Shown piece by piece: positions 513 to 14,803 of a stretch of 64,000 nucleotides of DNA; the stretch's first letter is position 1; each line of letters opens with the position of its first letter. This stretch comes from Polyangia bacterium. GTDB lineage: Bacteria; Myxococcota_A; Polyangia; Fen-1088. The DNA lies in contig DASZUD010000231.1 in the NCBI GenBank assembly GCA_035548155.1, positions 5,986 through 69,985 of the forward strand, given 5' to 3'. The notes beneath the pieces are model-generated. The model ran no database searches, had not been told where the DNA came from, and saw only the letters and a program-made list of their open reading frames with translations. The position numbers were made by a program, and so were the translations under genes.

Positions 513-1169
513 TCAAGCGCGAACGAGCGCCGTGATCGCGTTCTCGACCGCTCGTGGCAGCCTGTCAGAAACGTGACGCGCGAGCCGTGGGTGCTCCCAG
601 CGATCGTTGTCGATGATCACCTCGGCGCGGCGCACCGGATCGAAGGCCGCGCGGTAGAGGCGCTGCGCCGGGAAATAGCGATAGTTCATGCGATGTTCGA
701 CGACCTCGCGCGGTCGACCGCGCGCCATGTCGCGCGCGAGGATGCGCTGCCGCGCCACGTCCTCGCTCACCTCGAGCAGAAGCAGGGGCGCCGCCGCGGC
801 CGCGCGCGCGCGCAGCACGAAGACGCCCTCGAGCAGCGCAATCTGCGCCGCGCCAAACGTCAGCTCCTGCTCGCCGTCGACGACCTCGAGCGCGGCGTCG
901 AAGCGCGGAATGCGCGCGCTCGGCGCGCCGGCCAAAAATCGGACGAGGCACGCGTCGAGGGCAGCGAAGTCGTAGTACCGATCGTAATAGACGGCAGCTT
1001 CGTCGGCGTCCGCGGGCAACGGGCCGAGCGGGCGGCGAAAGTCGTCCACGCGGAACACGAACGCGGGCGCGCCGGTCTCCGCCTCGCAGGCCGCCGCGAC
1101 GGAGCGCGCGAACTGGGACTTGCCGCTGCCGTCGAGACCATCGACGGCCACCAGCGCGCGGGGCGTCAC
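513..1169 (-). CDS. P-loop nucleoside/nucleotide kinase-like protein (uridine kinase/PRK-like fold).
   Basis: An N-terminal Walker A motif VAVDGLDGSGKS starts at residue 6. Length is 218 aa. A 4-nt overlap with the upstream gene suggests translational coupling. Confidence 0.55.
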   Translation of the reverse strand: MTPRALVAVDGLDGSGKSQFARSVAAACEAETGAPAFVFRVDDFRRPLGPLPADADEAAVYYDRYYDFAALDACLVRFLAGAPSARIPRFDAALEVVDGEQELTFGAAQIALLEGVFVLRARAAAAAPLLLLEVSEDVARQRILARDMARGRPREVVEHRMNYRYFPAQRLYRAAFDPVRRAEVIIDNDRWEHPRLARHVSDRLPRAVENAITALVRA

Positions 1170-1987
1170 GGCACGGGCAGGCAGGGCGCCATCACGCGCA
1201 GCACCAGCTTGTGGCAGTGCCCGTTGCTGGCGGCGCTGCCGCGCGGCCGGAACAGATCCGGCTGGTTGTACTTGAAGGGCACCCCGTCACCGTTCGTCAC
1301 CGTGCAGCCGGCCTCGCGCATGATGACCTCGGGCGCGCACGTGTCCCACTCCTGCTCCGACGGCGAGAGGTTGAGGACGGCGTCGAGATCGCCGCGCGCG
1401 AGCGCGATGTGCTTCACCGAGGCGCCGAGGCGCACCGCCCTGTCCGCCATGCCGGCCGCCGCGAGGCACTTGCCGAGGCCGTCGTCGAGGTTGAGGCGCG
1501 AGACGCCGATCCGGATCTGGTTCGCCGCGCTCAGCGTCGAGGCCTTGAGCTGGCGCGTCTCGCCGCCGCGCTCCTCGAACGCGCCGCCGCCCTTCACGGC
1601 CCAGGCGAGCGAGCCCGCCACGGGCTGGAACACGACGCCCAGGACCGCCTCGTGATCGACGCTGAGGCCGACGTGGACGCAGAAGTCGCCCGTGCGCGCC
1701 ACGAAGTCGCGCGTGCCGTCGAGCGGGTCGACGATCCACACGCGCCGCTTGTCCAGCCGCGCCCGATCGTCGGGCGTCTCCTCCGTGAGGATCGCGTCGT
1801 CGGGGAAGCCTTCCGAGAGGCGCTTGATGATCGCGGCATTGGCCTCGAGATCGGCGGCCGTCACGGGCGACTTGTCCGCCTTCGTGCTGACGCCGATGTC
1901 GGGCCGCGCGTAGTGGCGCAGAATGATCTCGCCTGCCTCGCAGGCAGCGGCCTTGGCGACTTCGAGCTCCCGTTCGTACTGCGGCAC
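1166..1987 (-). CDS. Inositol monophosphatase / CysQ (3'(2'),5'-bisphosphate nucleotidase) family protein.
   Basis: Metal-binding motifs WIVDPLDGT and WDTCAPEVIMREAG are present. Length is 273 aa. Confidence 0.8.
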   Translation of the reverse strand: MPQYERELEVAKAAACEAGEIILRHYARPDIGVSTKADKSPVTAADLEANAAIIKRLSEGFPDDAILTEETPDDRARLDKRRVWIVDPLDGTRDFVARTGDFCVHVGLSVDHEAVLGVVFQPVAGSLAWAVKGGGAFEERGGETRQLKASTLSAANQIRIGVSRLNLDDGLGKCLAAAGMADRAVRLGASVKHIALARGDLDAVLNLSPSEQEWDTCAPEVIMREAGCTVTNGDGVPFKYNQPDLFRPRGSAASNGHCHKLVLRVMAPCLPVP

Positions 1988-2043
1988 GGACGCGGAGCCT
2001 ACCAGTTTGTCGGCGATCCCGCTCGCACGACGCTCGGATATCG

Positions 2044-2877
2044 TTGCGGTGGGCGCCCGCCGCGCCCCAGAATGGGGGCGTGTTCTCGGTCGCCTTCCTC
2101 AACGAGCTGCGGACCCTGGAGATCGAGCGGGTCGTGACCCACCTGCGCCCGGGCGCGCGCGTCCTCGAGGTCGGGGCCGGCACGGGGCGGCAAGCCGCCG
2201 AGCTGCGCGCGCGCGGCTTCGAGGTGGAGGCCATCGAGATCGCGGACTCGAACTACGCCGGCGACCGTGACTTCCCCATCACCAACTATGACGGCCGCCA
2301 CATCCCGTTCGGCGACGCGAGCTTCGACGTCGTCTTCTCGTCGAACGTGCTCGAGCACGTCCGCGACCAGGGGCAGATGCACGCCGAGATCAGGCGCGTG
2401 CTCAAGCCCGACGGCTATTGCGTGCACCTCATGCCGACCGGCGCTTGGCGCTTCTGGACGAGCGTCTCGGCCTTCCCCACGGCCTTCCAGAAGATCGCGG
2501 CGGCCGTGCGCGACGTGGGGCGGCCCGCCCCGTCGGCGGCGCGGCGTCTGCTGCGCGTCCTCGCCCTCCCGTTCGTCGCGCTCGGGTTCCTGCTGGGGCC
2601 CCTCTTCTTCCAGAACCGCCACGGCGAGCGCGGCACCCTCGTGAGCGAGCTGTGGCAATTCGGCCCGCGATGGTGGCGGCGCACCTTCGCGCGCCACGGC
2701 TTCGAGATCATCCGCGACGAGCCGCTCGGCCTCTTCTATACGGGCAACTTCTTCCTGGGCCGCTGGCTCTCGTTCTCAACCCGCGAGCGGTGGGCGCGGC
2801 GGCTCGGCAGCGCGTGTCACCTCTACGAGGTGAGGCCCGCTCGAGCCCCTGGCGCCAGCGGCTCGAGCGCGGCGTGA
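2044..2877 (+). CDS. Class I SAM-dependent methyltransferase.
   Basis: SAM-binding motif I VLEVGAGTGRQA and motif post-I DVVFSSNVLEH are present. It is divergent from the CysQ-like gene and 17 nt upstream of the next glycosyltransferase. Confidence 0.75.
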   Translation: MRWAPAAPQNGGVFSVAFLNELRTLEIERVVTHLRPGARVLEVGAGTGRQAAELRARGFEVEAIEIADSNYAGDRDFPITNYDGRHIPFGDASFDVVFSSNVLEHVRDQGQMHAEIRRVLKPDGYCVHLMPTGAWRFWTSVSAFPTAFQKIAAAVRDVGRPAPSAARRLLRVLALPFVALGFLLGPLFFQNRHGERGTLVSELWQFGPRWWRRTFARHGFEIIRDEPLGLFYTGNFFLGRWLSFSTRERWARRLGSACHLYEVRPARAPGASGSSAA

Positions 2878-2894
2878 TAGGGTCCCGCCCCCGG

Positions 2895-4034
2895 ATGGCC
2901 ACCCGCACACGCATCCTCTACTTGTCGCCCTCGCTCACGCAGGGAGGCGCCGAGCGCCACGTGGTCGAGCTGGTGCGCAACCTCGACGAAGCGACGTTCG
3001 AGCCCGCCATGTGCGTCGTGCGGCCCGGCATCCACTTCCGGGGCGAGCTCCCGCCCGGCGAGCCTCGCTACCTGCTGGGGCGGCGCCTCTTCACCCCAGG
3101 CGCGTTGCGGGGTGTCGTGCGCGCCATCGAGGATTTTCGTCCCGACGTGCTGCACGCCCACCTCAACGACGGCAATCTGCTGGGCCGGCTTGCCACGACC
3201 TTCACGAAGGTGCCGGCCGTCGTCACCTCCGTGCACCTCGACGAGATGAGCCCCCCGTACCGGATGCTCGAGCGCCTCATGTGGCGGCGGAGCGATCGCA
3301 TCGTCGCCGTATCGAGAGGCGTCAAAGACTTCCTCGTGGGTACGGTGGGGCTGCCGGACGAGCGCGTGCAGGTCGTGGTCAACGGCGTCGACCCGACGCG
3401 GTTCGTGCCGGGCGACGACCAGCGACGCGCCGCCGCGAGAGCGCGGTTCGACGTCGCGCCCGAGCGGCTCGTGGGCCTGATGCCGGCGCGCCTGTCGCGG
3501 CAGAAGAATCAGGAGCGTGTCGTCGAGGCGCTGGCCGAGCTCAAGACCCGCGGCCGCCTCCCGCCTGAATTCCTGCTGCTGCTGGCAGGTCGGAGCTCAT
3601 CGGAGTCCCTGGAGCGCAAGGTGCGCGGTCTCGTCGCCCAGGCGCGGCTCGACGAGCAGGTGCGGTTCCTCGGCCCGGTCAGCGAGATGCAAGAGCTCTA
3701 CTGGGCGTCGGACGTGCTGCTCATGCCATCGATCACGGAGGGCTCGTCGCTGGCGGCCTTCGAGGCCATGGCCGCTGGTCTCCCGGTGCTCATCAGCCGG
3801 CGCAGCAACAGCGACGGCGCCATCATCGACGGCGAACACGGCTGGCAGATCGCCGACAGCGACACGACGTCGATCGCGCGTGCCCTCACGGTCATCATCG
3901 AGACGCCCGGCGCGGAGCGCCTGCGCCTCGGCCGACAGGGACGCGCGCGCGTCGAGGGCCGCTACACCGTCGCGCGCGTCGCGCGGGACTTCGAGTCGCT
4001 CTATGGATCCGTGCTGCAGGCGGCGGGACGCTAG
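2895..4034 (+). CDS. Glycosyltransferase family 4 (GT-B fold).
   Basis: The track ORF 2418..4034 begins with an R/P-rich extension. The protein-like sequence starts at MATRTRILYLSPSLTQGGAERHV (ATG 2895). The GT4 E-x7-E motif SITEGSSLAAFEAMAAG is present. Confidence 0.85.
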   Translation: MATRTRILYLSPSLTQGGAERHVVELVRNLDEATFEPAMCVVRPGIHFRGELPPGEPRYLLGRRLFTPGALRGVVRAIEDFRPDVLHAHLNDGNLLGRLATTFTKVPAVVTSVHLDEMSPPYRMLERLMWRRSDRIVAVSRGVKDFLVGTVGLPDERVQVVVNGVDPTRFVPGDDQRRAAARARFDVAPERLVGLMPARLSRQKNQERVVEALAELKTRGRLPPEFLLLLAGRSSSESLERKVRGLVAQARLDEQVRFLGPVSEMQELYWASDVLLMPSITEGSSLAAFEAMAAGLPVLISRRSNSDGAIIDGEHGWQIADSDTTSIARALTVIIETPGAERLRLGRQGRARVEGRYTVARVARDFESLYGSVLQAAGR

Positions 4035-4048
4035 ACGAACGCTGGACG

Positions 4049-5620
4049 CTAAGCGGCGTCCGGACCGCGGCCGCGTCGGCCGAACATCCGACGAACGAGG
4101 TTGAGGATGAAGCGGCGCTCTTCCTCTCCGGGCCGCAGCGCGAGCAGGGCGACGGGATAGATGACGAGGCCCGTGACGGCGACCAGCAGCACGCGCAGCT
4201 TCGGCTCGAGCGGGATGGCGCGCACGGCGAGCTCGCCCAAGAGCGCGATGCCAGCGGCCAGGAACGGCTTGAAGAAGGCGACGTTGAAGGGGTGCACGCG
4301 CTCGAGCACCCAGACCTGCACGACCAAGGTGCCGATGAGCACGGACGTCGACGTGAGGGAGGCGACGGCGGCGCCCGTGATGCCGTAGCGCGGGATGAGC
4401 AGCACGGAGAGCACGACGTTGGTCAGGGCCGCGACGAGGTTGTCCCACAGAAAGAGTCTCGAGCGCCCCGCCATGACGATGACGTACCCGGTGAGCCCGA
4501 GCACGCCGTTGACGACATGGCCGCAGACGAGCAGGCCCATCGCGGTCGCGCCCGACACGTACCCTGGCCCGTACAGCCAAAGCAGCGGTTCGCGCAGCGC
4601 GAGCAGCGTGAGCGCGATGGGCGCCGACGCCGACGCCACCCACCGGATCATGAGAGAGAGGTTGTAGCGCAGGCGCTCGCGGTCGCCCTGGTGCAGCGCC
4701 TCGGACATCATCGGCGCGGCGATGCTGTCGAAGGCGTAACGCAAGCCTGCCACGGAGCGCCCGAGCTCTTCGGAGGCCGCGAACACGGCGACGGAGCCCG
4801 CGCCCGCGTACGCGCTCAAGATGAAGACGTTCACGCGCTGGAGGATGCTGTTCAGGAACTCGGCGGCGCCGAGGGGCAGCGCGAACTTGATGAGGCCGCG
4901 GTGCGGTCGCGCGCGCAACGCCTCGCGCAGCCGACCGCGGCCGAGCACGGCGCTGGCGCCGACCCAAGCGAGGCCGAAGAGCAGCGTCGTCGACAAGCCG
5001 TGCGCGGCGGCGGCGCCGTAGACGTCCCGGCGAAAGTACCAGACGGCGAGCGTGATCCCGACCAGGAGGAACGGCTCGCAGATGCCGCGCACGAGGAGGT
5101 TCACACGCGTCACCTTGGCGGCCAACGTGGCCGCCATGAGCACGATGACCATCCCGCCCCCCAGGACCGTGGGCGCGAGCAGCGGCAACACCCCGCCGAA
5201 CGCCGTGTTGCCCCACAGGCGCACGAACAACGGCGCGCCGAGCGCGAGCCCGAGCGACAGCAAGAGCAACACGCCGCCCGAGAGGCGCAGCGCGCTGCCG
5301 AGCGCCTCGGTCTCCTCGCGCGTCTCACCCACGGCCCGGTGCGCGGCGACGAACTTCAGCATCGCCTTGTCGCCGCCGGCGATGCCGGCGCGCATCAACA
5401 CCTCGCAGAGATCCGCGCCCGTGCGGTAGACGCCGTAGGCGGTCTGACCGAACAAGCGCGCCACCAGCACGCGGTGCAGGGGCAAGAGGCCCTGGCCGAG
5501 CATGGCGAGGATCTGCGAAACGCCGCTGCGCGCGGCATGCGCGGCGTCCTCGGAGCGGCTCACCGGGGCGCGCGACGGAGCCGCGGGCGCGGCCCCGCCC
5601 GCGGCGTCGGGCTCGTTCAC
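4049..5620 (-). CDS. Polysaccharide biosynthesis protein, MOP-superfamily flippase (Wzx-like).
   Basis: The 523-aa protein has about 12 predicted hydrophobic helices and the typical polysaccharide-biosynthesis-protein architecture. Its start overlaps the stop of asnB by 4 nt. Confidence 0.8.
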   Translation of the reverse strand: MNEPDAAGGAAPAAPSRAPVSRSEDAAHAARSGVSQILAMLGQGLLPLHRVLVARLFGQTAYGVYRTGADLCEVLMRAGIAGGDKAMLKFVAAHRAVGETREETEALGSALRLSGGVLLLLSLGLALGAPLFVRLWGNTAFGGVLPLLAPTVLGGGMVIVLMAATLAAKVTRVNLLVRGICEPFLLVGITLAVWYFRRDVYGAAAAHGLSTTLLFGLAWVGASAVLGRGRLREALRARPHRGLIKFALPLGAAEFLNSILQRVNVFILSAYAGAGSVAVFAASEELGRSVAGLRYAFDSIAAPMMSEALHQGDRERLRYNLSLMIRWVASASAPIALTLLALREPLLWLYGPGYVSGATAMGLLVCGHVVNGVLGLTGYVIVMAGRSRLFLWDNLVAALTNVVLSVLLIPRYGITGAAVASLTSTSVLIGTLVVQVWVLERVHPFNVAFFKPFLAAGIALLGELAVRAIPLEPKLRVLLVAVTGLVIYPVALLALRPGEEERRFILNLVRRMFGRRGRGPDAA

Positions 5621-7581
5621 GACGCCCTCACGGCGCGCGCGGACATCGCCTCATGCTGGAGGCGCTCCGCCGTCGCGGCCACCTCGCGCGCGAACGCCGC
5701 CCGCCCGTCGCAGAGCTCGCGCTGCCACGTCTCGAGCACGATCAGGTTCCACAGGCGTTCACCGTGATCCTCGCCGGCGCGGTGGCGCTCCAGCAGATCC
5801 GCCACGGCCTCGGGTCGGAACAGGCCGCGGGCCCGCGCCGCGTCCGAGAGCAGCGTCTCGCGCGCGAAGCCGTAGAGGCGCCCGCGCAGCCAGGGCCCCG
5901 TCGGCAGCGAAAAGCCCTTCTTGCGCCGGTTCAGGATCTCGGACGGCACGAGGTCGGCGAACGCGCGCTTGAAGATGTGCTTGCCCTTGCCGGCGCGCAA
6001 CTTGAGCGGCCCGGGCAGCGCCGCGCCCAGCTCGACGACGTGGTGGTCGACGAGCGGCGCGCGTGCCTCGAGCGCGTGCGTCATGCTGGCGATGTCGACC
6101 TTCACGAGGATGTCGTCGGGCAGGTAGGTCTCGGCGTCGAGGTTCTGCAGGCGGCTCACGGTGTCCGTGGCGTGCGAGGCGCCGAGGTGCGCAGCGAACG
6201 ACTCGGCCGTCGCGTCGCGCGCGAACCGCTCGGCGAGCTCGGGTGTGTAGAGCGCGGCCTTCTCCTCGGCCGAGAAGTGGCAGATGAGGCGCAAGTAACG
6301 CGTGGCCTCGTCGGAGCCGAGGCGCGCGCCGAACTCGCGGATGGGGCGGCCCCCGCGGCCGGGCGCGGCGGCGAGGATCGCCGCGGCCCCGCGCGCGAGC
6401 GGCCCTGGGAGGCGGCGCAGCGTGTCGGCGAGGTGCGCCCAGACGTACCGCCGATACCCCCCGAACGCCTCGTCGCCCGCGTCGCCCGAGAGCGCGACCG
6501 TGACGTCGCGCCGGGTCATCTCGCACAGGTAGCGCGTAGGCACGGCCGACGTGTCGGCAAACGGCTCGCCGTGGTGCCGCACGATGCTGGGCAGGAGCCC
6601 CACCATGTCCGGCTCGACGACCAGCTCGTGGTGATCGGTGCGCCATCGCTCGGCGACGAGGCGCGCGTAAGGCAGCTCGTTGTCGAGGCGCCCGCCCTCC
6701 GAGAAGCCGACCGAGAACGTCTTGACCGGCTCGCCCATCGCGCGCGCCATGCACGCGACGACGATCGACGAATCGACACCACCCGACAGGAACGCGCCGA
6801 GCGGGACGTCCGACATGAGGCGCGAGCGCACGGCCTCTTCGACGGTCTCGCGCACGCGCCGCGCCGCCTCCTCCTCGGTGAGGTGCGCGAGCGTCGGCGC
6901 CGCCGAGAGCTGATAGTAGCGGCGCAAGACGGGCCGCTCGCCCGGGCGCACCTCGAGGGTGTGGCCCGCCGGCAGCTTGTTCACGCCCGCGTAGATCGTG
7001 CGCGGCGCCGGGACGTACTGCAGCGCCAGGTACGCGTCGAGCGCCTCCATCGAGATCGCCGTGGGCGTCCGTTCGTCGGCGATCAGCGCGCCCAGCTCCG
7101 ACGCGAACACGAACCCGTCGGCGCGTTCGCAATAGTAGAGGGGCTTCTCGCCGAAGCGATCGCGCGCGAGCAGCAGCGTCCCCTTGCGGGCGTCCCACAG
7201 CGCGAAGGCGAACATGCCGCGCAAGTGCTCGGGGACGCGCGCGCCGACCTCCTCATACAGGTGGGCGACGACCTCGGAGTCGCTGCCGCTCTTGAAGGTG
7301 TGCCCTTTGGCGACGAGGTCCCTCCGCAGCTCGGCGGGGTTGTAGATCTCGCCGTTGACGACGATGGCGATCTGGCCGTCCTCGTTCGTCATCGGCTGGC
7401 GGCCCGCGTCCGACAGATCGATGATCGAGAGGCGCCGGTGCGCGAGCGCGATCGGCCCCGCCTGGAAGAACCCGTGGCCGTCGGGCCCGCGGTGCACCAT
7501 GGCCGCCGCGAAGCGCTGGGCGGCGCCCGCGGGCGGCGCGGCGTCGAGGCGCGGCGCGAGCGCGCCCGCGATCCCACACAT
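5617..7581 (-). CDS. asnB: Asparagine synthase (glutamine-hydrolysing) family amidotransferase (AsnB/WbpS-like).
   Basis: An N-terminal MCGIAG nucleophile is present (glutaminase Cys2). The PP-loop FLSGGVDSSIVVA is present. Length is 654 aa. Confidence 0.9.
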   Translation of the reverse strand: MCGIAGALAPRLDAAPPAGAAQRFAAAMVHRGPDGHGFFQAGPIALAHRRLSIIDLSDAGRQPMTNEDGQIAIVVNGEIYNPAELRRDLVAKGHTFKSGSDSEVVAHLYEEVGARVPEHLRGMFAFALWDARKGTLLLARDRFGEKPLYYCERADGFVFASELGALIADERTPTAISMEALDAYLALQYVPAPRTIYAGVNKLPAGHTLEVRPGERPVLRRYYQLSAAPTLAHLTEEEAARRVRETVEEAVRSRLMSDVPLGAFLSGGVDSSIVVACMARAMGEPVKTFSVGFSEGGRLDNELPYARLVAERWRTDHHELVVEPDMVGLLPSIVRHHGEPFADTSAVPTRYLCEMTRRDVTVALSGDAGDEAFGGYRRYVWAHLADTLRRLPGPLARGAAAILAAAPGRGGRPIREFGARLGSDEATRYLRLICHFSAEEKAALYTPELAERFARDATAESFAAHLGASHATDTVSRLQNLDAETYLPDDILVKVDIASMTHALEARAPLVDHHVVELGAALPGPLKLRAGKGKHIFKRAFADLVPSEILNRRKKGFSLPTGPWLRGRLYGFARETLLSDAARARGLFRPEAVADLLERHRAGEDHGERLWNLIVLETWQRELCDGRAAFAREVAATAERLQHEAMSARAVRAS

Positions 7582-8915
7582 TAAGCGAGGCCTTTCGGCG
7601 ACGCGGGCCCCTGAGAGGGCCCCGCGCCCCCGGCGCTCGCTCCGCGCGGCAGAGCCTCGCTGCGCTCGGATGGGTCTGCCAATCCCTTTGCTGCGAGGAG
7701 GTCGTCGTAGAGGCGCACGGTCTCCTCGAGGATGCGCTCGACGCTGAAGGTCTCCGCGACGTGGGCGCGGCCGCGCGCGCCCATGGCGCGGCGCTCGTCA
7801 GGCCCTGCCGCCACCATGCGGGCCAGCGCCTCGGCCAGCGCGTCGTGGTCGAAGGTGGGCGCCTCGAACCCGCTCACGCCGTCGACGACGATGCGATCGA
7901 TGTTCGCGGCGTGCGACACGACGGCGGGCAGCCCGCAGGCGTGCGCCTCCAGGACGGCGTTCGGCAGGCCTTCGTACAGCGACGGCATCACCAGCGCGTC
8001 GGCCGCGTGATAGAGCGACAGCATCTCGCTGACGGTGCCCAGGAACCGCACGGCCTCCGTCAGCCCCAGGAGCTCGAGCACGCGCGGCAGCACCGCCGAG
8101 TAGACGCGATCGCGGTTGCGCCCCGCCAGCATAACGCGCACGTTCGCGGGCAGCCGGCCCGCGCGCCGCAGCCGGGCCAGCGCCAGCGCCAGCCCGATCT
8201 GATGCTTCTGCACGCCGACGCGCCCGGGAAGCAGCAGCGCGATCTCATTGGCGCCCAACCCCCACTTCGCGCGCGCCGCGGCTCGCTCGTCGTTGGTCGG
8301 CGGCCGGAAGCGCTCGAGGTCGATGAAGTTGTGCAGGAGCTGCACCTTCTCGGGCGCGACGCCCGCCAGCTCCACCAGCTCGCGGCGCACGCCCTCCGAG
8401 TTGGCGATGATCCGGTCGCTCTTCTGCGAGAGCCACTGCTCGGTGAGCAGGTGGACGACGTGCATGGCGCGGCTACGCACAGCCGTGACGACGACGGGCA
8501 CGGCCGCCCGCCGCGTCGCGAGGCGCGCCCAGAAGTTCGCCTTGTCGCGGTACGAGTGCAGGATGTCGGGCTTCTCTTCGCGCAGCACCTCGACGAGCTT
8601 GCGCAGCCCGCGCGGCCCCATGCGCCGCTCGCCCAGCACGTGGCGCGGCTCGCCGTCCGGCAGGTACTCGCGGTAATGGACGACGTCCTCGTAGAGGCAC
8701 AGCGTCGGCTCGAAGCGCGCCGGGAGCCGCGTCATGAGCTCGAGGATCTGCCGCTCTGCCCCGCCCTGCTGCAGGTTCGGGATGAAAAGAAGAACCTTGT
8801 GCCTTTTCGACGGGGCCTGGCTCGCCGCCGCTCGCGAACCGATCGACACCGGGTCCCCCTCGCTTCGCGCGGCCAAGCCGCGCTGCGCTCGCCCTTGATC
8901 CACGGCGCCGTTCAT
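7581..8915 (-). CDS. Glycosyltransferase family 4.
   Basis: The E-x7-E motif YEGLPNAVLEAHACGLP is present, with a GT-B N-domain KVLLFIPNLQQGGAERQ. The true start may lie 30-40 codons downstream of the ORF start. Confidence 0.85.
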   Translation of the reverse strand: MNGAVDQGRAQRGLAARSEGDPVSIGSRAAASQAPSKRHKVLLFIPNLQQGGAERQILELMTRLPARFEPTLCLYEDVVHYREYLPDGEPRHVLGERRMGPRGLRKLVEVLREEKPDILHSYRDKANFWARLATRRAAVPVVVTAVRSRAMHVVHLLTEQWLSQKSDRIIANSEGVRRELVELAGVAPEKVQLLHNFIDLERFRPPTNDERAAARAKWGLGANEIALLLPGRVGVQKHQIGLALALARLRRAGRLPANVRVMLAGRNRDRVYSAVLPRVLELLGLTEAVRFLGTVSEMLSLYHAADALVMPSLYEGLPNAVLEAHACGLPAVVSHAANIDRIVVDGVSGFEAPTFDHDALAEALARMVAAGPDERRAMGARGRAHVAETFSVERILEETVRLYDDLLAAKGLADPSERSEALPRGASAGGAGPSQGPASPKGLA

Positions 8916-9659
8916 TTACCACACGCCTTCTCGGAGGGCCTCCTCGGCGCGCTGCCGCTCTTCGGGCAGGTCGACCTCCAACCACCCGTGCCCGCTGATG
9001 TCGCGGCACAGGGGGGGCCGGTCGGTCGTCGCCAGGCGCGCCAGCACGCGCTCGACGTGAATGGCCCGCCCCTCTTCCGCGAGCGCGGCCTCGGCCGTCG
9101 CCCAATAGCGCGCCGCGGCCCCGGCCGGCACCTTCGACATGCCGACGTAGCCCGCGTCCCAAGTCTCGAGCGTCTTCGCGATGCGCCGCACCCGCCCGGC
9201 CTCGTCGCGCTCGACCTTCATGTCGTCCGCGCCCAGCGTCCGATCCGTATCGATGAACGCCGTGACTTCGCTGGCCGGCCTCTCGACGATCCCCGCAATG
9301 GCCGGCCTGTAGATGTGGTCGATGTTCATGACGAGCAGCTCGTCGGCGAGGTCGATGCGCGGGCGCGCCGTCATGAGCGAGACCAGGTTGCCGTCGCGAA
9401 AAGCCTCGTTCCGAACCAGCGTCACGCCGAGCGCGCGCCTGGCGATCTCGGCCTCGACGAGCTCGTAGCCATACCCGCCGACGACGATCACGTCGCGCGC
9501 CCCCGCGCGCTTCGCGAACCGCACGGCGTACGCCAGCAGCGGCTCTGCCCCGACGGTGATGAGCGCCTTCGGGATGCGCTCCGTGAGCTGCCCGAGCCGG
9601 CTGCCGAGCCCGGCCGCCAGCAGCACCGCCTGCATTCCCCCGTTCTTTGTCGAGCTCAC
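8916..9659 (-). CDS. Sugar-phosphate nucleotidyltransferase (NTP_transferase family).
   Basis: The signature MQAVLLAAGLGSRLG matches G-x-G-x-R-L. Length is about 240 aa. It lies immediately upstream of the GT4 gene. Confidence 0.75.
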   Translation of the reverse strand: MSSTKNGGMQAVLLAAGLGSRLGQLTERIPKALITVGAEPLLAYAVRFAKRAGARDVIVVGGYGYELVEAEIARRALGVTLVRNEAFRDGNLVSLMTARPRIDLADELLVMNIDHIYRPAIAGIVERPASEVTAFIDTDRTLGADDMKVERDEAGRVRRIAKTLETWDAGYVGMSKVPAGAAARYWATAEAALAEEGRAIHVERVLARLATTDRPPLCRDISGHGWLEVDLPEERQRAEEALREGVW

Positions 9660-9763
9660 GCGATGTTCCTACGTCGATTGGTCGAAGGCCGCGAGCGTAG
9701 CGCGGCTATGCCGCGCAGAGCGAGGGGGCCAGGGGCACGCGAGCGGCAGCGAGCCGGACCCCG

Positions 9764-10477
9764 TCAAAAAAGCTCAGGCAGCGCCGAGAAGCGCTTGATG
9801 ACGGGGAGGTGCGGGAAACGCAGCTGGAAGCGCTCGGACGAGAACGTCGTCGCGACGCCGACGAACGGGATCCCTTCGCGCTCGGCGATCTCGCCGTCGT
9901 GCAGCGAATCGCCGACGAACAGCATCTCCTGGCGGTCGAGCCCGAACTTGCGCGACGTCGCGTCGATGTGCGGGCGCCCCTTGGCGAGGCCCTCGCCGAA
10001 GCCGAGCACGAGATCGAACGGAAAGCCGGCGTTGCGCGCGAACGTCTCGACGTTGCGCGTGCCGTTGTTCGACGAGACGGCGATGCGCACGCCCATCTCG
10101 CGCATGCGCTCGAGCGCGCGCCGCGTGTCCTGCGGCATGCGGATGAGATCGCACCGCTCGGGCTTGCGGCCCTCGAACAGATCGGACGCGCCCGCGTTCC
10201 GCGGATCGCCCGGGTAGATCTCCTCGAGCTGCTTGACGAACGGCAGGCCGCACGTCGCGAGGTACAGCTCGCGCGCGAGCATGCGCGGCGTGCCGTAGGT
10301 CGACTCCATCACCTCGGTCGCGAGGTCGGCCAGCGTCGGCATGCTGTCGATCAGCGTGCCGTCCAGGTCGCACAGCAGCACGCGCGGCAGCGGGAGGCGC
10401 CCAAGGGCGCGCGCCGGGGCAAGGCCGGGGCTGAAGCTGGGTAAGCTCGACTTGGTGACGACGGGGAAGCCTGACAT
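9764..10477 (-). CDS. HAD-superfamily hydrolase (phosphatase).
   Basis: HAD motif I LLCDLDGTLIDS is present, with motif IV-like FVGDSLHDGEIA. The start is chosen at MSGFPVVT inside the track ORF 9764..10537. Confidence 0.7.
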   Translation of the reverse strand: MSGFPVVTKSSLPSFSPGLAPARALGRLPLPRVLLCDLDGTLIDSMPTLADLATEVMESTYGTPRMLARELYLATCGLPFVKQLEEIYPGDPRNAGASDLFEGRKPERCDLIRMPQDTRRALERMREMGVRIAVSSNNGTRNVETFARNAGFPFDLVLGFGEGLAKGRPHIDATSRKFGLDRQEMLFVGDSLHDGEIAEREGIPFVGVATTFSSERFQLRFPHLPVIKRFSALPELF

Positions 10478-10678
10478 GACGGATCCCCCTCCGAGCAAGG
10501 GACACGCCACCGCGATCGGCGCTCTAAGTGTTTGCAATCATTCGGACGCCGGGCTGGCGACGGTGTCGGTGTTCAACCTTCGACACCCGCCTGGTGGTGG
10601 GTTTTCACCACCGGCTACCCGACCCACCCGAGCTGCCCCGAGACGGACAACGCTCCCCCCAGGGGCCGGGCGCCTGAC

Positions 10679-12082
10679 CTAGGCGCCGACGATCAAAATG
10701 AAGCGCCAGTTCTGGGCCTCGATGCCGTAGCCGGCGTCGAAGCCGACGAGCGGGACCGCGACCGAGCGCAGGAAGAAACGGAGACCGCCGCCCACGTCGT
10801 TGTGGATGCTCTGGCTCCACGAAAAGCCGTACTTGTTGTCGGCGGGGAACACGCGCATGTCCACCGTGGGCCGCGTGTAGTGATCCATGCCGCCGAAGTC
10901 GGTCGGCACCTCGCGGAACCACAGCGCCTGCACGTCGTAGAACGCGAGCGCGCGGAAATCGAGCGAGCCGATCGAAAAGAGCGGGAAGTGGTACTCGACC
11001 TTGCCGCCGACCTGCGAGTCACCGCGGAACTGCTGGTACAGATAGCCGCGCAGGTTCGGGCCGCCCGCGGTGTTCTCCGCCCAAAACGGCAGATCATGGC
11101 CGAAGGTCGCGCCCACGAGATAGATCAGGTTGTGCGACTTGAAGAACCGGATGCCGTGCTCCCAGCTGGCGCCGGCGCGCCAGTAGGTGAAGTCACTCTT
11201 GAACGTCGGGCTCGCGTAGTCGAACCCGAGGCTGAACGCCTCGCCGCGCATGACGGCGAACTCGCGCCCGCGAAAGTCGAACGTCAGTGAGGCGCGCCCG
11301 ATGCCCGCCAGCCCCCCGTTGGTGAGGGACGGCTCGGGCGCACCAGTCTCGGGGTTGAACGCGCCCTCGTTGTTGAAGTTCTCGAGGTGCCACGCCACCT
11401 GCGTCTTCACGCGTCTCCACCAGGCGATGCCGGCCACCAACTCGAAGCCGTACGAGAAGAGGTGCTGCTCGGAGAGCTCGGCCGGATCGGCGAGCGAGAT
11501 CTGGCCTCCGGGACCCGTCCCGTAGTTCTGGTACTCGGGGATGACCTGCTTCTGCACGAGGCCCTGCGCCTGCCAGTAGAGCCAGCTCCCGAACAGCGAC
11601 GGATCGCGGTAGGCGAGGAGGGCGCCCGAGTCGACGGTGGCGACGCGACCGCCGATCGCGAGCTGCTTGCCGCGCCCGAACAGGTTGCCGTGCACGAACA
11701 AGACGCCCAGCGACTTGTTGTTCGCCGACCACGAGCCCGTGGGGACCGGGGCCCACGGAAACTTGTCTTTCACGGAGACATTCACGCGAACGCCCGCGCC
11801 ATTCGGCTCCCACCAGACGTTGACGTCCGAGAAGAGGCCCGTCGTGTTGAGACGCTCGCGCACCTTGTCGAGGGTGTCCGCCTCGAGGATGTCGCCGTTG
11901 GAGATGCCGGCGATCGAGCGGACGGTGGCCTCTTCGGTGCGCTGGTTGTCGAGGATACGCACGTCGGTGATGGTCTCGCCGATCGCGAGGGCGCGCCCGG
12001 GCGCTGCGCAAAGGCCGATCAGCACCAAGACGACTGCGAGCCCGACGGACCGGGCACGCGACGTCAAGCCAAGCTCGGTCAT
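10679..12082 (-). CDS. Omp85-family outer-membrane beta-barrel protein with a single POTRA domain.
   Basis: A signal peptide MTELGLTSRARSVGLAVVLVLIGLCAAPGRALA is present. The POTRA-like segment reads ITDVRILDNQRTEEATVRSIAGISNGDILEADTLDKVRERLNTTGLFSDVNV. Beyond it lies an aromatic/Gly-rich, beta-barrel-like sequence. Confidence 0.7.
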   Translation of the reverse strand: MTELGLTSRARSVGLAVVLVLIGLCAAPGRALAIGETITDVRILDNQRTEEATVRSIAGISNGDILEADTLDKVRERLNTTGLFSDVNVWWEPNGAGVRVNVSVKDKFPWAPVPTGSWSANNKSLGVLFVHGNLFGRGKQLAIGGRVATVDSGALLAYRDPSLFGSWLYWQAQGLVQKQVIPEYQNYGTGPGGQISLADPAELSEQHLFSYGFELVAGIAWWRRVKTQVAWHLENFNNEGAFNPETGAPEPSLTNGGLAGIGRASLTFDFRGREFAVMRGEAFSLGFDYASPTFKSDFTYWRAGASWEHGIRFFKSHNLIYLVGATFGHDLPFWAENTAGGPNLRGYLYQQFRGDSQVGGKVEYHFPLFSIGSLDFRALAFYDVQALWFREVPTDFGGMDHYTRPTVDMRVFPADNKYGFSWSQSIHNDVGGGLRFFLRSVAVPLVGFDAGYGIEAQNWRFILIVGA

Positions 12083-12276
12083 GCGGCAAGCATATCGGCG
12101 CCGCGAGCATTCGTAAATGCTCGCTCTGCCCTGCGCGAGCACTTGTCGCTCCTTGTGGGACTTGTGTCACATCCCACATGCGACGGCGATCTCGCTCGCT
12201 TCGCGCGCCCTAAGGGCGGCGCGGGCCGCGAATACACCTCCCGTCGCGGAAAATTGCTGGTAATTTTGGCGGGCCC

Positions 12277-14781
12277 ATGGCGTCCCCCGACTCGGCACGA
12301 AGTGACCGGTACCACAGGTGGGTGACGAAGCATCCGGTGCTCGTCCTCTTGATCGCGACGCTCGTGGCGGCGGGAGGCGCGTTCCTCGCGTCGAAGCTGC
12401 GGCTCAAGACGGCGTTCGTCGAGCTCCTGCCCAACAACGACCCCGGCGTCGTGGCCCTCGCGCGCACGCAGAAGCGCATCGGCGACCTCTCGCTGCTGCT
12501 CATCGGCGTGCGCTCGCCCGACCACGAAGCGAACCTGCGCTACGCCGAGGCGCTGACGCAGAAGCTGCGAGCGATGCCGGACCGCGTGGTGCAGCTCGCC
12601 GCCTACAACATCCGCGACGTCCGGAGCTTCTTCCAGAAGAACAAGTGGCTCTACGCCTCGGAGGACGACCTCGAGTCGATCCGCGACCGCCTGCGCAGCG
12701 AGATCAGCAAGCGCAAGAACCCGCTCTACGTCGCGCTCGGTGACGAAGAGTCGCTCGAGGACATGCAGAAGCGGCTCGCGGAGCACAAAGATCCCGTCGA
12801 GGAGCGCTTCCCGGGCGGCGTCTTCACGAGCAACAACGGCGAGTACGTTTGGATCGCCGCGCTGCCGCCGGGCGGCCTCTTCGCCGAGAACGCCGGCGAG
12901 GGCCTGTTCAAGGCCGCGCACCGGCTGATCGCCGAGCTGCCGCCCACGAGCTTCCATCCCGAGATGCGGGCCGAGGTCTCAGGGCCCATCGCGACGGCCA
13001 TCGCCAGCCGCGAGGCGGTCGAGCGCGACATCCTGTGGGTCACGGTGACCTGCCTCGTCGTGGTCGCGCTGTCGATCGGCGTCTATTTCCGCCGCCTGCG
13101 CGCGATCCCCCTCACGGGGGCCCCGGCCGTCGTGGGCGCGGCGCTGGCGTTCGGCGTGGCCCAGCTCGCGTTCGGCTACCTGAACTCGTCGACGGCGTTC
13201 CTCGGGTCGATCATCCTCGGTAACGGCATCAACTACGCGATCGTCGTCATGTCGCGCTACGAGGAGCAGCGCGCGCGCGGCGACAATGCGGACGCGGCGT
13301 TGCGCGCGGCGCTGGCCGGTACCTGGCGCGGCACGCTGGTGGCGTCGATCTGCGCGTCGGCGGCGTACGCCTCGCTGATGGTGACGAGCTTCCGCGGCTT
13401 TTATCAGTTCGGTGTCATGGGCGCCGTGGGCGCGCTGTTCTGCTGGGCCGCCTCGTACACGGTGCTGCCGGCGATGCTGGTCATCCTCGACCGGCGCGGC
13501 GGCGACGGCGCCCCGCGGGGGCGCGCGCCTCTGGACCTCGGGCCGCTGGCGCGGTTGCTCGGCCGCCACGGCGCGGCGGTCTCGGTCGTCGTGACGATCA
13601 TCGGCGCGGGCTCGCTGCTGGGCCTCACGCACTTTCTCAAAGACCCGTTCGAGTACGACTTCCGCCGGCTCAACGCGAAGCTGAACTCGACGAAAGAGGC
13701 CCAGGAGTTCGGCAAGAGCTTCGACAAGCTCTTCGGCCGGTGGCCGTCGCCCACCATCGTGCTCGCCGACTCGGTCGACGAGGTCGAAGACATCAAGCAG
13801 ACGATCCGGCGGCAAGACGCCGAGCAGGCGGCCCAGCGTCCCGATCCGAACGCGCCCGGCGCCAAGACCATCGGGCAGATCGTCACGATCTACGATCTCC
13901 TGCCCGGGACGCCCGAGGTGCAGCAGCGGAAGCTGGCGCTGATCGCCGACATCGACAAGCTGAAGCACGACAAGTCGCTGGCGCTGCTGACACCGGACGA
14001 ACGGAAGAAGCTGGACCAGATCGACCCGCCGAACGATCTCCACGAGCTCAAGCCGATGGACTTGCCGGCGATCGCGCGCCGGCCGTTCTCCGAGGTCGAC
14101 GGCACCGTCGGCCGCGTCGTGCTCGTCTACCCGGTCGAGCAGGGCATCTCGGTGTGGAGCGGCCGCGATCTCTTGCGCATGGCCGGGGTGCTGCAGTTCC
14201 TGCACTTGCCCTCTGGCAAGGAGCTCGAGACGTCAGGCTCGGCCGTCGTGTTCGGTGCGATGATCCGCTCGATCCTGCACGACGGGCCCATCGCGACGAT
14301 CGTGTCGCTCGTGGCGGTCATCCTGCTGGTGCTCGCCACGATCCGGCCGCTGCGCGCGGCGCTGGTGGCCGTGGGCATCCTCCTCCTGGGGGTGGTGGTG
14401 ATGGTGGGCGGCGCGGGCTGGGCGCGCGTGCACGTGACCTTTCTCAACTTCATCGCGCTGCCGATCACGTTCGGCATCGGCGCCGAATACGTGCTGAACG
14501 TCGTGACGCGCTACCGCGAGGAGAAGGACATCCTGCGCGCCGTCATCTCGACGGGCGCGGCGGTCGCGCTGTGCTCGTGGACGACGATCGTCGGCTACGG
14601 CTCGCTGCTGGCGGCGCGCAACCAGGCGCTGCAGGGCTTCGGCGCCATGGCGATTCTGGGCGAGGTGGCGTGCCTCTCGGCGGCCATCGTCGCGCTGCCG
14701 GCGTTCATCATCTGGCGCCAGCAACGCCGGCGCAGCGCCGAGGTGCCCGCGCCAGCCAGCAGCGTCGACGCCGCGTCCTGA
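12277..14781 (+). CDS. MMPL/RND-superfamily exporter (sterol-sensing-domain type, HpnN-like).
   Basis: The 834-aa protein has two sets of transmembrane helices separated by large soluble loops. Its overall layout matches MMPL/RND transporters. Confidence 0.75.
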   Translation: MASPDSARSDRYHRWVTKHPVLVLLIATLVAAGGAFLASKLRLKTAFVELLPNNDPGVVALARTQKRIGDLSLLLIGVRSPDHEANLRYAEALTQKLRAMPDRVVQLAAYNIRDVRSFFQKNKWLYASEDDLESIRDRLRSEISKRKNPLYVALGDEESLEDMQKRLAEHKDPVEERFPGGVFTSNNGEYVWIAALPPGGLFAENAGEGLFKAAHRLIAELPPTSFHPEMRAEVSGPIATAIASREAVERDILWVTVTCLVVVALSIGVYFRRLRAIPLTGAPAVVGAALAFGVAQLAFGYLNSSTAFLGSIILGNGINYAIVVMSRYEEQRARGDNADAALRAALAGTWRGTLVASICASAAYASLMVTSFRGFYQFGVMGAVGALFCWAASYTVLPAMLVILDRRGGDGAPRGRAPLDLGPLARLLGRHGAAVSVVVTIIGAGSLLGLTHFLKDPFEYDFRRLNAKLNSTKEAQEFGKSFDKLFGRWPSPTIVLADSVDEVEDIKQTIRRQDAEQAAQRPDPNAPGAKTIGQIVTIYDLLPGTPEVQQRKLALIADIDKLKHDKSLALLTPDERKKLDQIDPPNDLHELKPMDLPAIARRPFSEVDGTVGRVVLVYPVEQGISVWSGRDLLRMAGVLQFLHLPSGKELETSGSAVVFGAMIRSILHDGPIATIVSLVAVILLVLATIRPLRAALVAVGILLLGVVVMVGGAGWARVHVTFLNFIALPITFGIGAEYVLNVVTRYREEKDILRAVISTGAAVALCSWTTIVGYGSLLAARNQALQGFGAMAILGEVACLSAAIVALPAFIIWRQQRRRSAEVPAPASSVDAAS

Positions 14782-14803
14782 TGACGCGCGGCGGTCGGGC
14801 GCC

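Follow-up and report, generated by a model that had tools for sequence, protein, structure and literature searches.

The question raised by this locus of an uncultured myxobacterium (Polyangia) is whether the glycan genes, the nucleotidyltransferase-phosphatase pair and the Omp85-like barrel encoded side by side at positions 2044-12082 belong to one surface polysaccharide pathway, as a sequence-only reading had suggested. Genes in the window (the complete 64-kb stretch of DNA analysed) were called by GC3 frame analysis and by searches with Pfam and NCBIfam models; the letters at each gene junction were inspected, and the region was compared with 86 related loci. All genes listed before were recovered at their positions; the interpretation was borne out in part, and the true unit reaches further to the left (1-1987) and to the right, where it includes an RND transporter gene (12277-14781). 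In our main reading, to which we assign a probability of about 0.55, the region is a composite of an Omp85-RND pair, a Kennedy-type head-group operon and a mosaic glycan cassette.

A conserved operon of probable head-group enzymes

In orthologous loci, the genes recur in the order RNase Y, RND (divergent), Omp85, HAD, NTP-transferase, variable block, IMPase, kinase and c8. The HAD-superfamily phosphatase (9764-10477, minus strand; HAD_2, E = 1.4e-14), the gene call of which was confirmed independently (237 aa), matched AlnB and phosphoglycolate-phosphatase-like proteins in the PDB and is the first gene of an operon with a putative sigma54-type promoter: a -24/-12 promoter-like element, TGGCGTGTCCCTTGCT (10494-10509, minus strand), ends 16 nt upstream of its ATG. 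The leader would then measure just about 7 nt, which speaks against a functional promoter. In 44 of 44 loci, however, an element of this type preceded the HAD gene by no more than 80 nt (exact TGGC-N7-TTGC in 32; one mismatch, with GG and GC kept, in the other 12), at a background of 0.047 matches per kb per strand and three matches only in the 64-kb window.

The second gene (8916-9635, alternative GTG start at 9659, minus strand; NTP_transf_3) belongs to a family whose profile found IPCT (2xme, 5.3e-16), IPCT/DIPPS (4mnd, 1.9e-15) and LicC (1jyk, 4.3e-15) as best PDB matches, and by these homologies its product is a COG1213-type cytidylyltransferase of the LicC/IPCT kind. Of the activated-sugar or alditol-phosphate branch formerly suggested for this enzyme and the HAD phosphatase, the alcohol-phosphate version is thus upheld by the solved relatives, while the sugar-nucleotide version is not. 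Beyond the variable block follow an IMPase/CysQ-family phosphatase (1166-1987, minus strand; PF00459, E = 1.7e-53), for which both the best NCBIfam model (CysQ, 170.7 bits, cut-off 228.8) and the IMPase models (82 bits) stayed below cut-off, and orfX (513-1169, minus strand), which overlaps the phosphatase gene stop by 4 nt. The latter codes for a 218-aa P-loop kinase of the PRK/uridine-kinase type (GC3 = 0.86; Pfam AAA_33, E = 1.3e-7; PDB matches 1rz3 and uridine kinase; homologues recorded as PF00485 PRK) and is kept beside the IMPase-family gene and c8 in 12 loci. The gene c8 (1-417, minus strand) is truncated by the window start, so that only the N-terminal 139 aa of a CDP-alcohol phosphotransferase of AF2299/DIPPS type are represented and the catalytic membrane domain falls outside. 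Its assignment is based on the full-length orthologues of the closest relatives (L002 and L020; 76-79% identity by tblastn), which carry the complete motif LDGCDGELAR-x8-G-x3-D-x3-D, on profile matches of the family to AF2299 (4o6m, 2.6e-24) and to the DIPPS half of 4mnd (1.6e-16), and on PF01066, present in all 120 best homologues.

This backbone is maintained where glycan genes are missing: five relatives retain Omp85, HAD and NTP-transferase but lack GT4, AsnB and Wzx genes there, and in several relatives the five genes from HAD to c8 make up a single tight operon. The IMPase gene directly follows the NTP-transferase gene in the compact loci L037, L024, L029, L028 and L034; in the first three, which are free of glycan genes, NTP-transferase, IMPase, kinase and c8 are contiguous, with overlaps of 0-4 nt. 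In L063 and L086, HAD, NTP-transferase and c8 are fused and adjoined by a PAP2_C/SMS-like enzyme, an LtaS/EptA-type sulfatase-fold enzyme and LPG_synthase_TM. Since the backbone is conserved without glycan genes, the NTP-transferase and the HAD phosphatase are assigned to a Kennedy-type, possibly inositol-type, head-group pathway; the conserved operon probably makes a CDP-activated phospho-alcohol head group. The IMPase-kinase-c8 trio also stands alone in L083 and L084, far from HAD, NTP-transferase and Omp85, so the two halves of the operon may be pathways in their own right.

The best solved relatives of the NTP-transferase and c8 are the Archaeoglobus fulgidus IPCT/DIPPS (AF0263, 4mnd; IPCT 2xme) and its paralogue AF2299 (4o6m). 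The two systems share a COG1213-type cytidylyltransferase, a CDP-alcohol phosphotransferase with an N-terminal cytoplasmic domain and an adjacent IMPase-family phosphatase; in contrast, the genes studied here are split instead of fused, are joined by a PRK-like kinase and a HAD phosphatase, enclose glycan genes, have lipid-modifying neighbours in relatives and occur in a mesophilic-type myxobacterial lineage. [quoted passage not shown] By family only, the operon also resembles the putative inositol-lipid cluster of Bacteroidetes such as Bacteroides vulgatus and Prevotella (Heaver et al. 2022, PMC9246714), which combines the same three families (NTP-transferase, likewise phosphocholine-cytidylyltransferase-like, CDP-alcohol transferase and HAD) and has an LPG-synthase-like gene nearby, as have relatives of the present locus. 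That cluster adjoins MIPS, unlike the present locus, which in turn adds an IMPase-family gene, a kinase, a glycan cassette, the sigma54-type promoter and Omp85/RND. Ceramide phosphoinositol is made by M. xanthus (PMC9246714), and CDP-glycerate for a sphingolipid head group is made by a COG1213 cytidylyltransferase (PMC12275187).

A mosaic glycan cassette

In the window, 6.9 kb of glycan-type genes lie between the cytidylyltransferase and the IMPase-family phosphatase. On the minus strand, GT4b (7581-8915; Pfam) is followed by a glutamine-hydrolysing AsnB-type amidotransferase (5617-7581; Asn_synthase PF00733, E = 9e-100, plus GATase_7) with an intact N-terminal Cys2 and orthologues of 76-87% identity in relatives, and by a Wzx-like flippase of the MOP superfamily (4049-5620; PF01943, 40 bits, cut-off 28.2); a SAM-dependent methyltransferase (2044-2877; Methyltransf_11, E = 9.8e-19), without an orthologue cluster among the 86 loci, and GT4a (2874/2895-4034; Glycos_transf_1 and Glyco_transf_4) are encoded on the plus strand. 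GT4a starts either at GTG 2874, in a GTGA overlap with the methyltransferase stop, or at ATG 2895. The coupling of the AsnB paralogue to the flippase, claimed before, is substantiated by the 4-nt stop-start overlap (GTGA) read in the sequence. As judged from the junctions, GT4b is translationally coupled upstream to the cytidylyltransferase, whose stop abuts its start, and downstream to AsnB (1-nt overlap, TAATG). With the first three cassette genes coupled in this way to the cytidylyltransferase, glycan and head-group genes would be co-expressed.

The two GT4 enzymes are 38% identical over their full length, and both had TIGR03088 ('stp2') as best NCBIfam model (136-139 bits, cut-off 409); as the matches to solved structures (MshA, PimB', GlgM and others) are equally weak, no acceptor can be assigned. 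XrtA/PEP-CTERM exopolysaccharide loci typically combine GT4 and AsnB with a MOP flippase, and the best family matches, TIGR03088 and TIGR03108 (597.7 bits for AsnB, cut-off 816.9), also belong to these loci; unlike in these systems, exosortase or PEP-CTERM genes are absent from the window and all scores are below cut-off.

The exopolysaccharide-type matches speak for, and the low scores and missing exosortase against, a tentative alternative, i.e. an ordinary Wzx/Wzy locus in split form, in which the cassette builds an undecaprenyl-diphosphate repeat unit, priming, Wzy and Wza/Wzc functions are encoded elsewhere, and HAD, NTP-transferase, IMPase, c8, Omp85 and RND are mere flanks of a recombination hot spot, comparable to the conserved genes that flank O-antigen loci. 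Indeed, cassette genes vary in content, order and orientation between loci and are missing from some genomes, other versions hold Rml and epimerase genes, and myxobacterial polysaccharide pathways are known to be spread over several loci. Synteny covers the entire region and takes in housekeeping genes, e.g. RNase Y and SecA. Most of the synteny among the compared loci comes from one lineage, which also keeps RNase Y and a giant TPR gene; shared ancestry thus inflates the apparent linkage, which weakens the composite reading. However, a census of 49 variable-region clusters from about 40 loci (methyltransferases, GT4, Rml enzymes, sulfatases, GT-C) revealed no priming transferase, Wzy, Wza or Wzc family with at least two members, and Pfam scans of every GC3-supported ORF in the 64-kb window detected no Wza, Wzc, Wzy, ABC exporter or priming phosphoglycosyl transferase, so that the lack of Wzy/Wza/Wzc noted earlier holds across the entire window. 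The coupling of GT4, AsnB and Wzx to the cytidylyltransferase under a shared sigma54-type promoter argues for co-function rather than mere adjacency.

The Omp85 barrel and its divergent RND partner

The Omp85 gene (10679-12082, minus strand; PF01103, 48.4 bits; PF07244, 25.6 bits) encodes 467 aa including a signal peptide, for which the AlphaFold model (pLDDT 78.8) predicts one beta-alpha-alpha-beta-beta POTRA and 16 barrel strands. The 16-strand barrel, the POTRA domain and the lid-loop RGY are shared with BamA and TamA (top Foldseek matches, 1.3e-19 and 2.6e-17, respectively, at about 15% identity); however, the latter possess five or three POTRA domains, and an RND partner takes the place of a TamB/DUF490 neighbour. 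The BamA model scored 52 bits (cut-off 297) and no more than 685 of 1.84 billion clusters matched the protein; on the basis of these comparisons it represents a narrow, divergent subfamily and not an ordinary BamA or TamA paralogue. Myxobacteria carry several divergent, 'BamA-like' paralogues with 1-3 POTRA domains (Heinz & Lithgow 2014, PMC4104836).

Across a control region of 194 nt (12083-12276) with conserved blocks on both sides lies an HAE3/MMPL-type RND transporter gene (12277-14781, plus strand; MMPL, E = 6.6e-37), with HpnN (5khn, 3.3e-18) and MmpL4/5 as PDB matches and a score of 185.6 bits against the HpnN model (cut-off 751.85). The MMPL domain is common to the hopanoid exporter HpnN and to the mycobacterial glycolipid/siderophore exporters of the MmpL family, and both families transport lipids towards outer envelope layers. 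In contrast to these systems, no hopanoid or sterol genes are located nearby, and a conserved divergent Omp85 partner is present, whereas no paper pairing Omp85 with either family was found in the literature.

The Omp85 gene had been regarded as the end of the locus; it is instead the 5'-most gene on its own strand, upstream of HAD and separately promoted. Its ATG at 12082 and a sigma70-like element (TTTACG-N17-TATGCT) are kept over 34 loci, the 201-nt spacer to HAD holds the sigma54-type element, and relatives have genes on the opposite strand, or as much as 4.2 kb of additional genes, in between. On this sequence evidence, the separate promoters, the intervening genes and the compact relatives together indicate that Omp85 probably forms a transcription unit of its own, which goes against the earlier model; because no intrinsic terminator was detected downstream of it, read-through into HAD could occur.

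Could the barrel still deliver the product of the downstream genes? According to the earlier model, extended here by the divergent RND transporter, both proteins would deliver or assemble the glycoconjugate or glycolipid at the outer membrane, in place of Wza/Wzc. Apart from the lack of Wza, Wzc and Wzy in 64 kb, this agrees with the divergent neighbourhood of Omp85 and RND in 24 of 30 orthologous loci and in four distant loci without other synteny (L050, L051, L063, L073), with a HAD gene within 10 kb of Omp85 in 27/30 loci, and with the small size of the family and its distance from mainstream BamA/TamA. The subfamily also recurs beside RND, GT-C and LPG_synthase_TM genes, i.e. periplasmic glycosylation and lipid genes: a TMEM260-like GT-C is encoded directly upstream of Omp85 in 7-8 loci, LPG_synthase_TM and a PMT_2 GT-C share its operon in L063, and the neighbours of a recent Omp85 duplicate comprise LPG_synthase_TM, GT2, two GT-C genes and a second RND. 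A precedent for an Omp85 in lipid traffic is the lipid/OMP translocase TamAB (PMC12800296). Against this stand the different promoter classes of Omp85 and HAD, the opposite-strand genes between them in relatives, the compact loci that keep Omp85 without any glycan genes, and distant subfamily members in unrelated contexts (a POT transporter operon, a TrpB-like gene, a sigma54 activator). Moreover, known Omp85 proteins handle polypeptides, not glycans, and the lid-loop RGY and beta13 FYD signatures, which from BamA we take to be typical of insertases, are invariant. Delivery by Omp85 is therefore regarded as unlikely, whereas the divergence from ordinary BamA/TamA and the recurrent RND, GT-C and LPG_synthase_TM neighbours make a role in envelope glycoconjugates or lipids, e.g. 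in an envelope glycolipid, possible.

Proposed function of the composite region

That the conserved genes make a soluble osmolyte of the di-myo-inositol-phosphate type, unrelated to membranes or glycans, is very improbable: the closest solved relatives of the two key enzymes are indeed the two halves of the A. fulgidus IPCT/DIPPS, as would be expected from a split version of the hyperthermophile pathway (IPCT, DIPPS, IMPase), and an IMPase-family phosphatase is adjacent, but MIPS is missing nearby, c8 matches AF2299 better than DIPPS, the module in L086 and L063 is found together with flippase-like genes and enzymes for lipid head groups, and in the present locus its translation is coupled to that of glycan genes.

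In the composite reading, the first unit would consist of Omp85, under its sigma70-like promoter, and the divergent HpnN/MmpL-like RND transporter. The second, under the sigma54-type promoter, would have had the compact ancestral order HAD, cytidylyltransferase, IMPase-family phosphatase, PRK-like kinase and CDP-alcohol phosphotransferase. The cytidylyltransferase would convert an alcohol phosphate and CTP to a CDP-alcohol; inositol-1-phosphate is the favoured candidate for the substrate, ahead of phosphoglycerate, phosphocholine or glycerol phosphate. In the next step c8, the membrane transferase, would pass the phospho-alcohol on to a hydroxyl group, with a membrane lipid as the likeliest acceptor, and the phosphatases may supply the substrate or trim the product. 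The third unit, the mosaic glycan cassette, would have been inserted between cytidylyltransferase and phosphatase. The RND pump or Omp85 may deliver the product to the outer membrane; most economically, this product would be a glycoconjugate or glycolipid of the cell surface, variable between strains, which bears the phospho-alcohol head group or is assembled upon it.

Gene content and the variable cassette

Among the readings considered, the best supported is that a variable glycan cassette lies within a conserved Kennedy-type CDP-alcohol head-group operon and is co-transcribed with it. The G+C content of the window is approximately 70% and raw ORF lists are misleading; the gene set given here is based on third-position GC (GC3) analysis and on Pfam and NCBIfam scans. 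On the minus strand, the Omp85 gene (10679–12082) is followed by the genes of a HAD protein (9764–10477), an NTP_transf_3 protein (NTP-transferase; 8916–9635), the glycosyltransferase GT4b (7581–8915), AsnB (5617–7581) and a MOP/Wzx flippase (4049–5620); a second GT4 enzyme, GT4a (2874/2895–4034), a paralogue of GT4b with 38% identity, and a methyltransferase (2044–2877) are encoded on the plus strand, convergent to the minus-strand genes. The stop of the NTP-transferase gene directly abuts the GT4b start, GT4b and AsnB overlap by 1 nt, and AsnB and Wzx overlap by 4 nt (GTGA), all junctions being read from the sequence; the sequence-only reading, which had already reported the last of these overlaps, thus described the genes of the locus accurately. 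To the left of the locus as then delimited lie, on the minus strand, the genes of an IMPase/CysQ-family phosphatase (1166–1987) and of a 218-aa P-loop kinase (513–1169), the latter missing from that reading and overlapping the IMPase-family stop by 4 nt, as well as the first 139 codons of c8 (1–417), a predicted CDP-alcohol phosphotransferase gene of the AF2299/DIPPS type that is cut by the window edge. To the right, the gene of an MMPL/HAE3 RND transporter (12277–14781, plus strand) is arranged divergently. The weak best NCBIfam matches of the methyltransferase (2044–2877) and the NTP-transferase (8916–9635) include DVU_1556 and DVU_1551, two families from a single uncharacterised Desulfovibrio cluster; the scores lie well under the respective cut-offs.

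For comparison, 80 genome loci of relatives were fetched and six added later (L-numbers), and analysed by tblastn and clustering of GC3-supported ORFs; loci with an Omp85 identity of at least 55% were regarded as orthologous. Their order is giant TPR gene, RNase Y, RND (divergent), Omp85, HAD, NTP-transferase, a variable block, IMPase, kinase and c8. The RND gene is divergent and adjacent in 24 of the 30 orthologous loci and HAD is located at most 10 kb from Omp85 in 27, the three exceptions being a recent Omp85 duplicate. AsnB is present in 18/30, Wzx in 15/30 and GT4 in 21/30 loci, and their order and orientation vary from locus to locus. In three loci (L037, L024, L029) glycan genes are absent, and NTP-transferase, IMPase, kinase and c8 are contiguous with overlaps of 0–4 nt; in two others (L028, L034) the IMPase gene stands directly 3' of the NTP-transferase gene. 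These compact loci identify the 6.9 kb from 2044 to 8915 of the window as a mosaic cassette within what is otherwise a compact operon. It is not random; the class-1 AsnB orthologues are 76–87% identical, a conservation exceeding that of Omp85. The census of 49 other clusters of the variable region yielded methyltransferases, GT4 enzymes, Rml/epimerases, sulfatase-fold enzymes, GMC oxidoreductases, radical-SAM proteins and GT-C enzymes of the PMT_2 type. Families of priming transferases, Wzy, Wza or Wzc were not seen in two or more members.

Of a Wzx/Wzy pathway, the flippase was found in the window (PF01943, 40 bits at a cut-off of 28.2). No priming phosphoglycosyl transferase, Wzy, Wzc (PCP), Wza (OPX) or ABC exporter was detected among the GC3-supported ORFs of the 64 kb, which bears out the earlier remark that Wzy, Wzc and Wza are lacking. 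PDB homology was uninformative as to the acceptor of the GT4 enzymes. An XrtA/PEP-CTERM exopolysaccharide system is dismissed by the scores of the amidotransferase model TIGR03108 (597.7, below 816.9) and of the GT4 model TIGR03088 (135.8 and 139.3, below 409.05), and there is no exosortase in the window.

The rest of the window comprises housekeeping genes and a block of TPR/FHA proteins. The latter includes a run of very large TPR-repeat proteins (16822–38672, minus strand; 3512, 304, 580, about 1200 and 565 aa), together with a protein that carries an FHA domain (28764–30962); the gene of the 3512-aa protein shows synteny with the Omp85 region in the majority of relatives. A 77-aa ORF of high GC3 between the RND gene and RNase Y (14804–15037, minus strand) has an independently called equivalent of 79 aa in L081. 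A stretch of approximately 1.9 kb (47258–49207) is devoid of GC3-supported ORFs, has the highest G+C content of the window (approximately 0.75) and a strongly negative GC skew.

The conserved, probable head-group genes

The family profile of the NTP-transferase matched PDB entries 2xme (IPCT) at 5.3e-16 and 1jyk (LicC) at 4.3e-15, in line with COG1213 homology, and the IPCT half of 4mnd (IPCT/DIPPS) at 1.9e-15 over positions 1–232 of 237. With IPCT and LicC as its best solved relatives, the initial guess of an alcohol-phosphate branch proved to be a good one. By homology, the protein is a predicted member of the COG1213 class of alcohol-phosphate cytidylyltransferases (LicC, IPCT, CpgD, Cj1416), the known substrates of which are phosphocholine, inositol-1-P, phosphoglutamine and phosphoglycerate (PMC12275187). 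The c8 profile matched AF2299 at 2.6e-24 and the DIPPS half of 4mnd at 1.6e-16, and PF01066 was present in all 120 best c8 homologues, examined down to 51% identity. Only the N-terminal 139 aa are encoded in the window; the orthologues of L002 and L020 are 76–79% identical in this part and carry the complete motif D-x2-D-G-x2-A-R...G-x3-D-x3-D. In some relatives (L016, L018, L019, L028, L071, L072), two CDP-alcohol phosphotransferase paralogues flank the kinase, and the copy adjoining IMPase has a degenerate motif (DGCAG versus DGCDG, VGD versus VDD) that suggests an inactive or re-purposed subunit.

The kinase is of the PRK/uridine-kinase type (Walker A motif DGLDGSGKS), and the HAD protein resembles small-molecule phosphatases. 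The set of NTP-transferase, CDP-alcohol transferase and HAD resembles the Bacteroides/Prevotella cluster of Heaver et al., which has been proposed, still unproven, as a Kennedy-like inositol-lipid route in these genera (PMC9246714); ceramide phosphoinositol has been noted in M. xanthus (PMC9246714). Two caveats apply. The kinase adjoins c8 even in genomes devoid of the Omp85 and HAD genes (L083, L084), and the IMPase-kinase-c8 trio stands alone there, which weakens the assignment of all these genes to one pathway. As regards inositol, the IMPase-family protein is closer to CysQ according to NCBIfam, and no domain of myo-inositol-1-phosphate synthase (MIPS), an expected component of an inositol head-group pathway, was present in the window or among the conserved neighbours within 10 kb.

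In two more distant loci (L086, L063), HAD, NTP-transferase and c8 are fused into one unit that adjoins lipid head-group enzymes, i.e. PAP2_C/sphingomyelin-synthase-like, LtaS/EptA-type sulfatase-fold and LPG_synthase_TM proteins. Because of this neighbourhood, a membrane-lipid product is favoured over a soluble DIP-type solute. If the reading as a glycan cassette within a head-group operon were wrong, the locus would be nothing more than a variable polysaccharide cassette of the ordinary kind, set among conserved genes.

Promoters and transcription units

Omp85 and HAD are separated by a 201-nt spacer with, at 10509–10494, the sequence TGGCGTGTCCCTTGCT, a predicted sigma54-type -24/-12 element upstream of HAD with the canonical GG/GC register (judged by the pattern TGGCAC-N5-TTGC(A/T) with invariant GG and GC at a 12-nt register, upstream of a gene). 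An equivalent element precedes HAD at a distance of no more than 80 nt in 44 of 44 loci (32 exact, 12 with one mismatch), including those in which HAD does not adjoin Omp85; the background amounts to 0.047 per kb per strand, with three matches in the whole window. HAD, NTP-transferase, GT4b, AsnB and Wzx thus probably constitute one sigma54-type operon. The gap between HAD and NTP-transferase is 104 nt in the window and much shorter in relatives. The only terminator-like site in the operon spacers is a short GC hairpin with CTTTTTT over the HAD stop (9766–9788, minus strand); weak hairpins with a T-run of this kind are within chance expectation (6 found versus 4.8 expected).

A second, sigma70-like element, TTTACG-N17-TATGCT (within 12083–12130, minus strand), is conserved in the Omp85-RND spacer and stops 6 nt short of the Omp85 ATG (12082), whose assignment as the start codon it confirms. 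It became apparent only when 34 spacers were aligned; a sigma70 consensus scan of 1800–15200 found nothing. Its position implies a near-leaderless, presumably sigma70-type Omp85 transcript. A separate conserved block, CCTGGTAATTTT, precedes the RND ATG (12277) by approximately 10 nt. Opposite-strand genes are inserted between Omp85 and HAD in five loci (L003, L005, L015, L018, L068), and 4.2 kb with six genes separate the two in L081. According to these sequence data, Omp85 probably forms a transcription unit of its own. No intrinsic terminator was found after Omp85, where the spacer folds no better than shuffled sequences (z = -1.58), and a riboswitch or other known RNA is rejected for the spacers, in which Rfam had no match at E <= 1 (one chance match lies inside asnB); in the absence of a convincing terminator or Rfam element between Omp85 and HAD, read-through from Omp85 is possible. 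The sequence-only reading had taken Omp85 as the closing gene of a polysaccharide locus and as its possible exporter, a proposal that is supported neither by gene order nor by promoters or comparative content.

The Omp85 protein and its RND neighbour

The protein belongs to the Omp85 superfamily (PF01103, 48.4 bits at a cut-off of 24). Its N-terminus, MTELGLTSRARSVGLAVVLVLIGLCAAPGRALA-IGE, reads as a signal peptide, and the AlphaFold model (pLDDT 78.8) consists of one POTRA domain and a 16-strand barrel; the POTRA (PF07244, 25.6 bits at a cut-off of 21.3) is a single beta-alpha-alpha-beta-beta unit of residues 37–106. A Foldseek search retrieved BamA at 1.3e-19; the best structural matches were BamA and TamA, with approximately 15% identity and a TM-score of about 0.55, and the POTRA regions of BamA were barely detected by the sequence profile. 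Two-partner secretion (TpsB) is rejected, with one POTRA versus two and, in place of an adjacent TpsA substrate with a TPS domain, a nearby 3512-aa protein consisting purely of TPR repeats; TamA is rejected by one POTRA versus three and the missing TamB partner (no DUF490/AsmA-like gene in the window or beside Omp85 in the 86 loci), and BamA proper by one POTRA versus five and a TIGR03303 score of 52.1 bits versus a cut-off of 297.15. A phmmer search of 1.84 billion cluster representatives gave 685 matches at E <= 1e-3, 56 of them at E <= 1e-30, and all close homologues (63–78% identity) came from MAGs of uncultured Polyangia/Myxococcales. The protein represents a small, divergent subfamily that is neither mainstream BamA nor TamA; in myxobacteria, the occurrence of several divergent BamA paralogues that differ in the number of POTRA domains is already known (PMC4104836).

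The RND protein falls into the general MMPL/HAE3 class only (PF03176, 127.6 bits). The HpnN equivalog is rejected, TIGR03480 and NF052374 scoring 185.6 (below 751.85) and 105.1 (below 1100), and no hpn (hopanoid) genes are located near the RND gene. The protein is HpnN/MmpL-like; members of this class transport lipids and glycolipids outwards. The literature search found no relevant paper on a pairing of Omp85 with RND or HpnN proteins. Whether Omp85 is linked to glycoconjugates is addressed by indirect evidence in both directions. In favour of a link, the RND pairing persists in distant loci without any other shared feature (L050, L051, L063, L073). In L063, Omp85 is followed after a 15-nt gap by an LPG_synthase_TM protein and, with a 4-nt overlap, by a PMT_2 GT-C enzyme; in another subgroup, a TMEM260-like GT-C gene is located directly upstream in 7–8 loci. 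The recent Omp85 duplicate (L004, L011, L038) is nested within the main clade. This lineage-specific copy occurs in a three-component periplasmic glycosylation context: LPG_synthase_TM divergent from Omp85, a PMT_2 GT-C enzyme, another PMT_2 GT-C enzyme and a GT2-methyltransferase fusion on the opposite strand, and finally a second RND gene, whose product is 35% identical to that of the window.

Other settings run contrary to these: in one subgroup Omp85 shares its operon with genes of a POT peptide transporter and a prolyl oligopeptidase, in another it adjoins a sigma54 activator, and the compact loci keep Omp85 without any glycan genes, which counts against a link between Omp85 and the glycoconjugate. 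A looser envelope-glycolipid role of the Omp85/RND pair is a doubtful possibility. It is unlikely that Omp85 and the divergent RND protein constitute a module dedicated to the outer-membrane delivery of a myxobacterial surface glycolipid with an inositol-phosphate-like, CDP-alcohol-derived head group and a strain-variable, amidated glycan, and a product comparable to PIM or GIPC is correspondingly improbable; if this were true, a member of the Omp85 superfamily would take part in the export of lipids or glycolipids with no partner of the TamB type.

If the glycan cassette is indeed embedded in a head-group operon, an uncultured Polyangia lineage would make a surface glycoconjugate that is built on a Kennedy-type phospho-alcohol head group or carries one as a decoration, and would diversify this product by exchanging glycan cassettes at a single fixed position in a sigma54-controlled operon. 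The still-unconfirmed bacterial "CDP-inositol" route would be extended beyond Bacteroidetes, and the synthesis of inositol or sphingolipid head groups in myxobacteria would become accessible to genetics. Furthermore, a small, divergent Omp85 subfamily would be defined; its recurrent association with RND, GT-C and flippase-like genes would make a non-canonical role testable.
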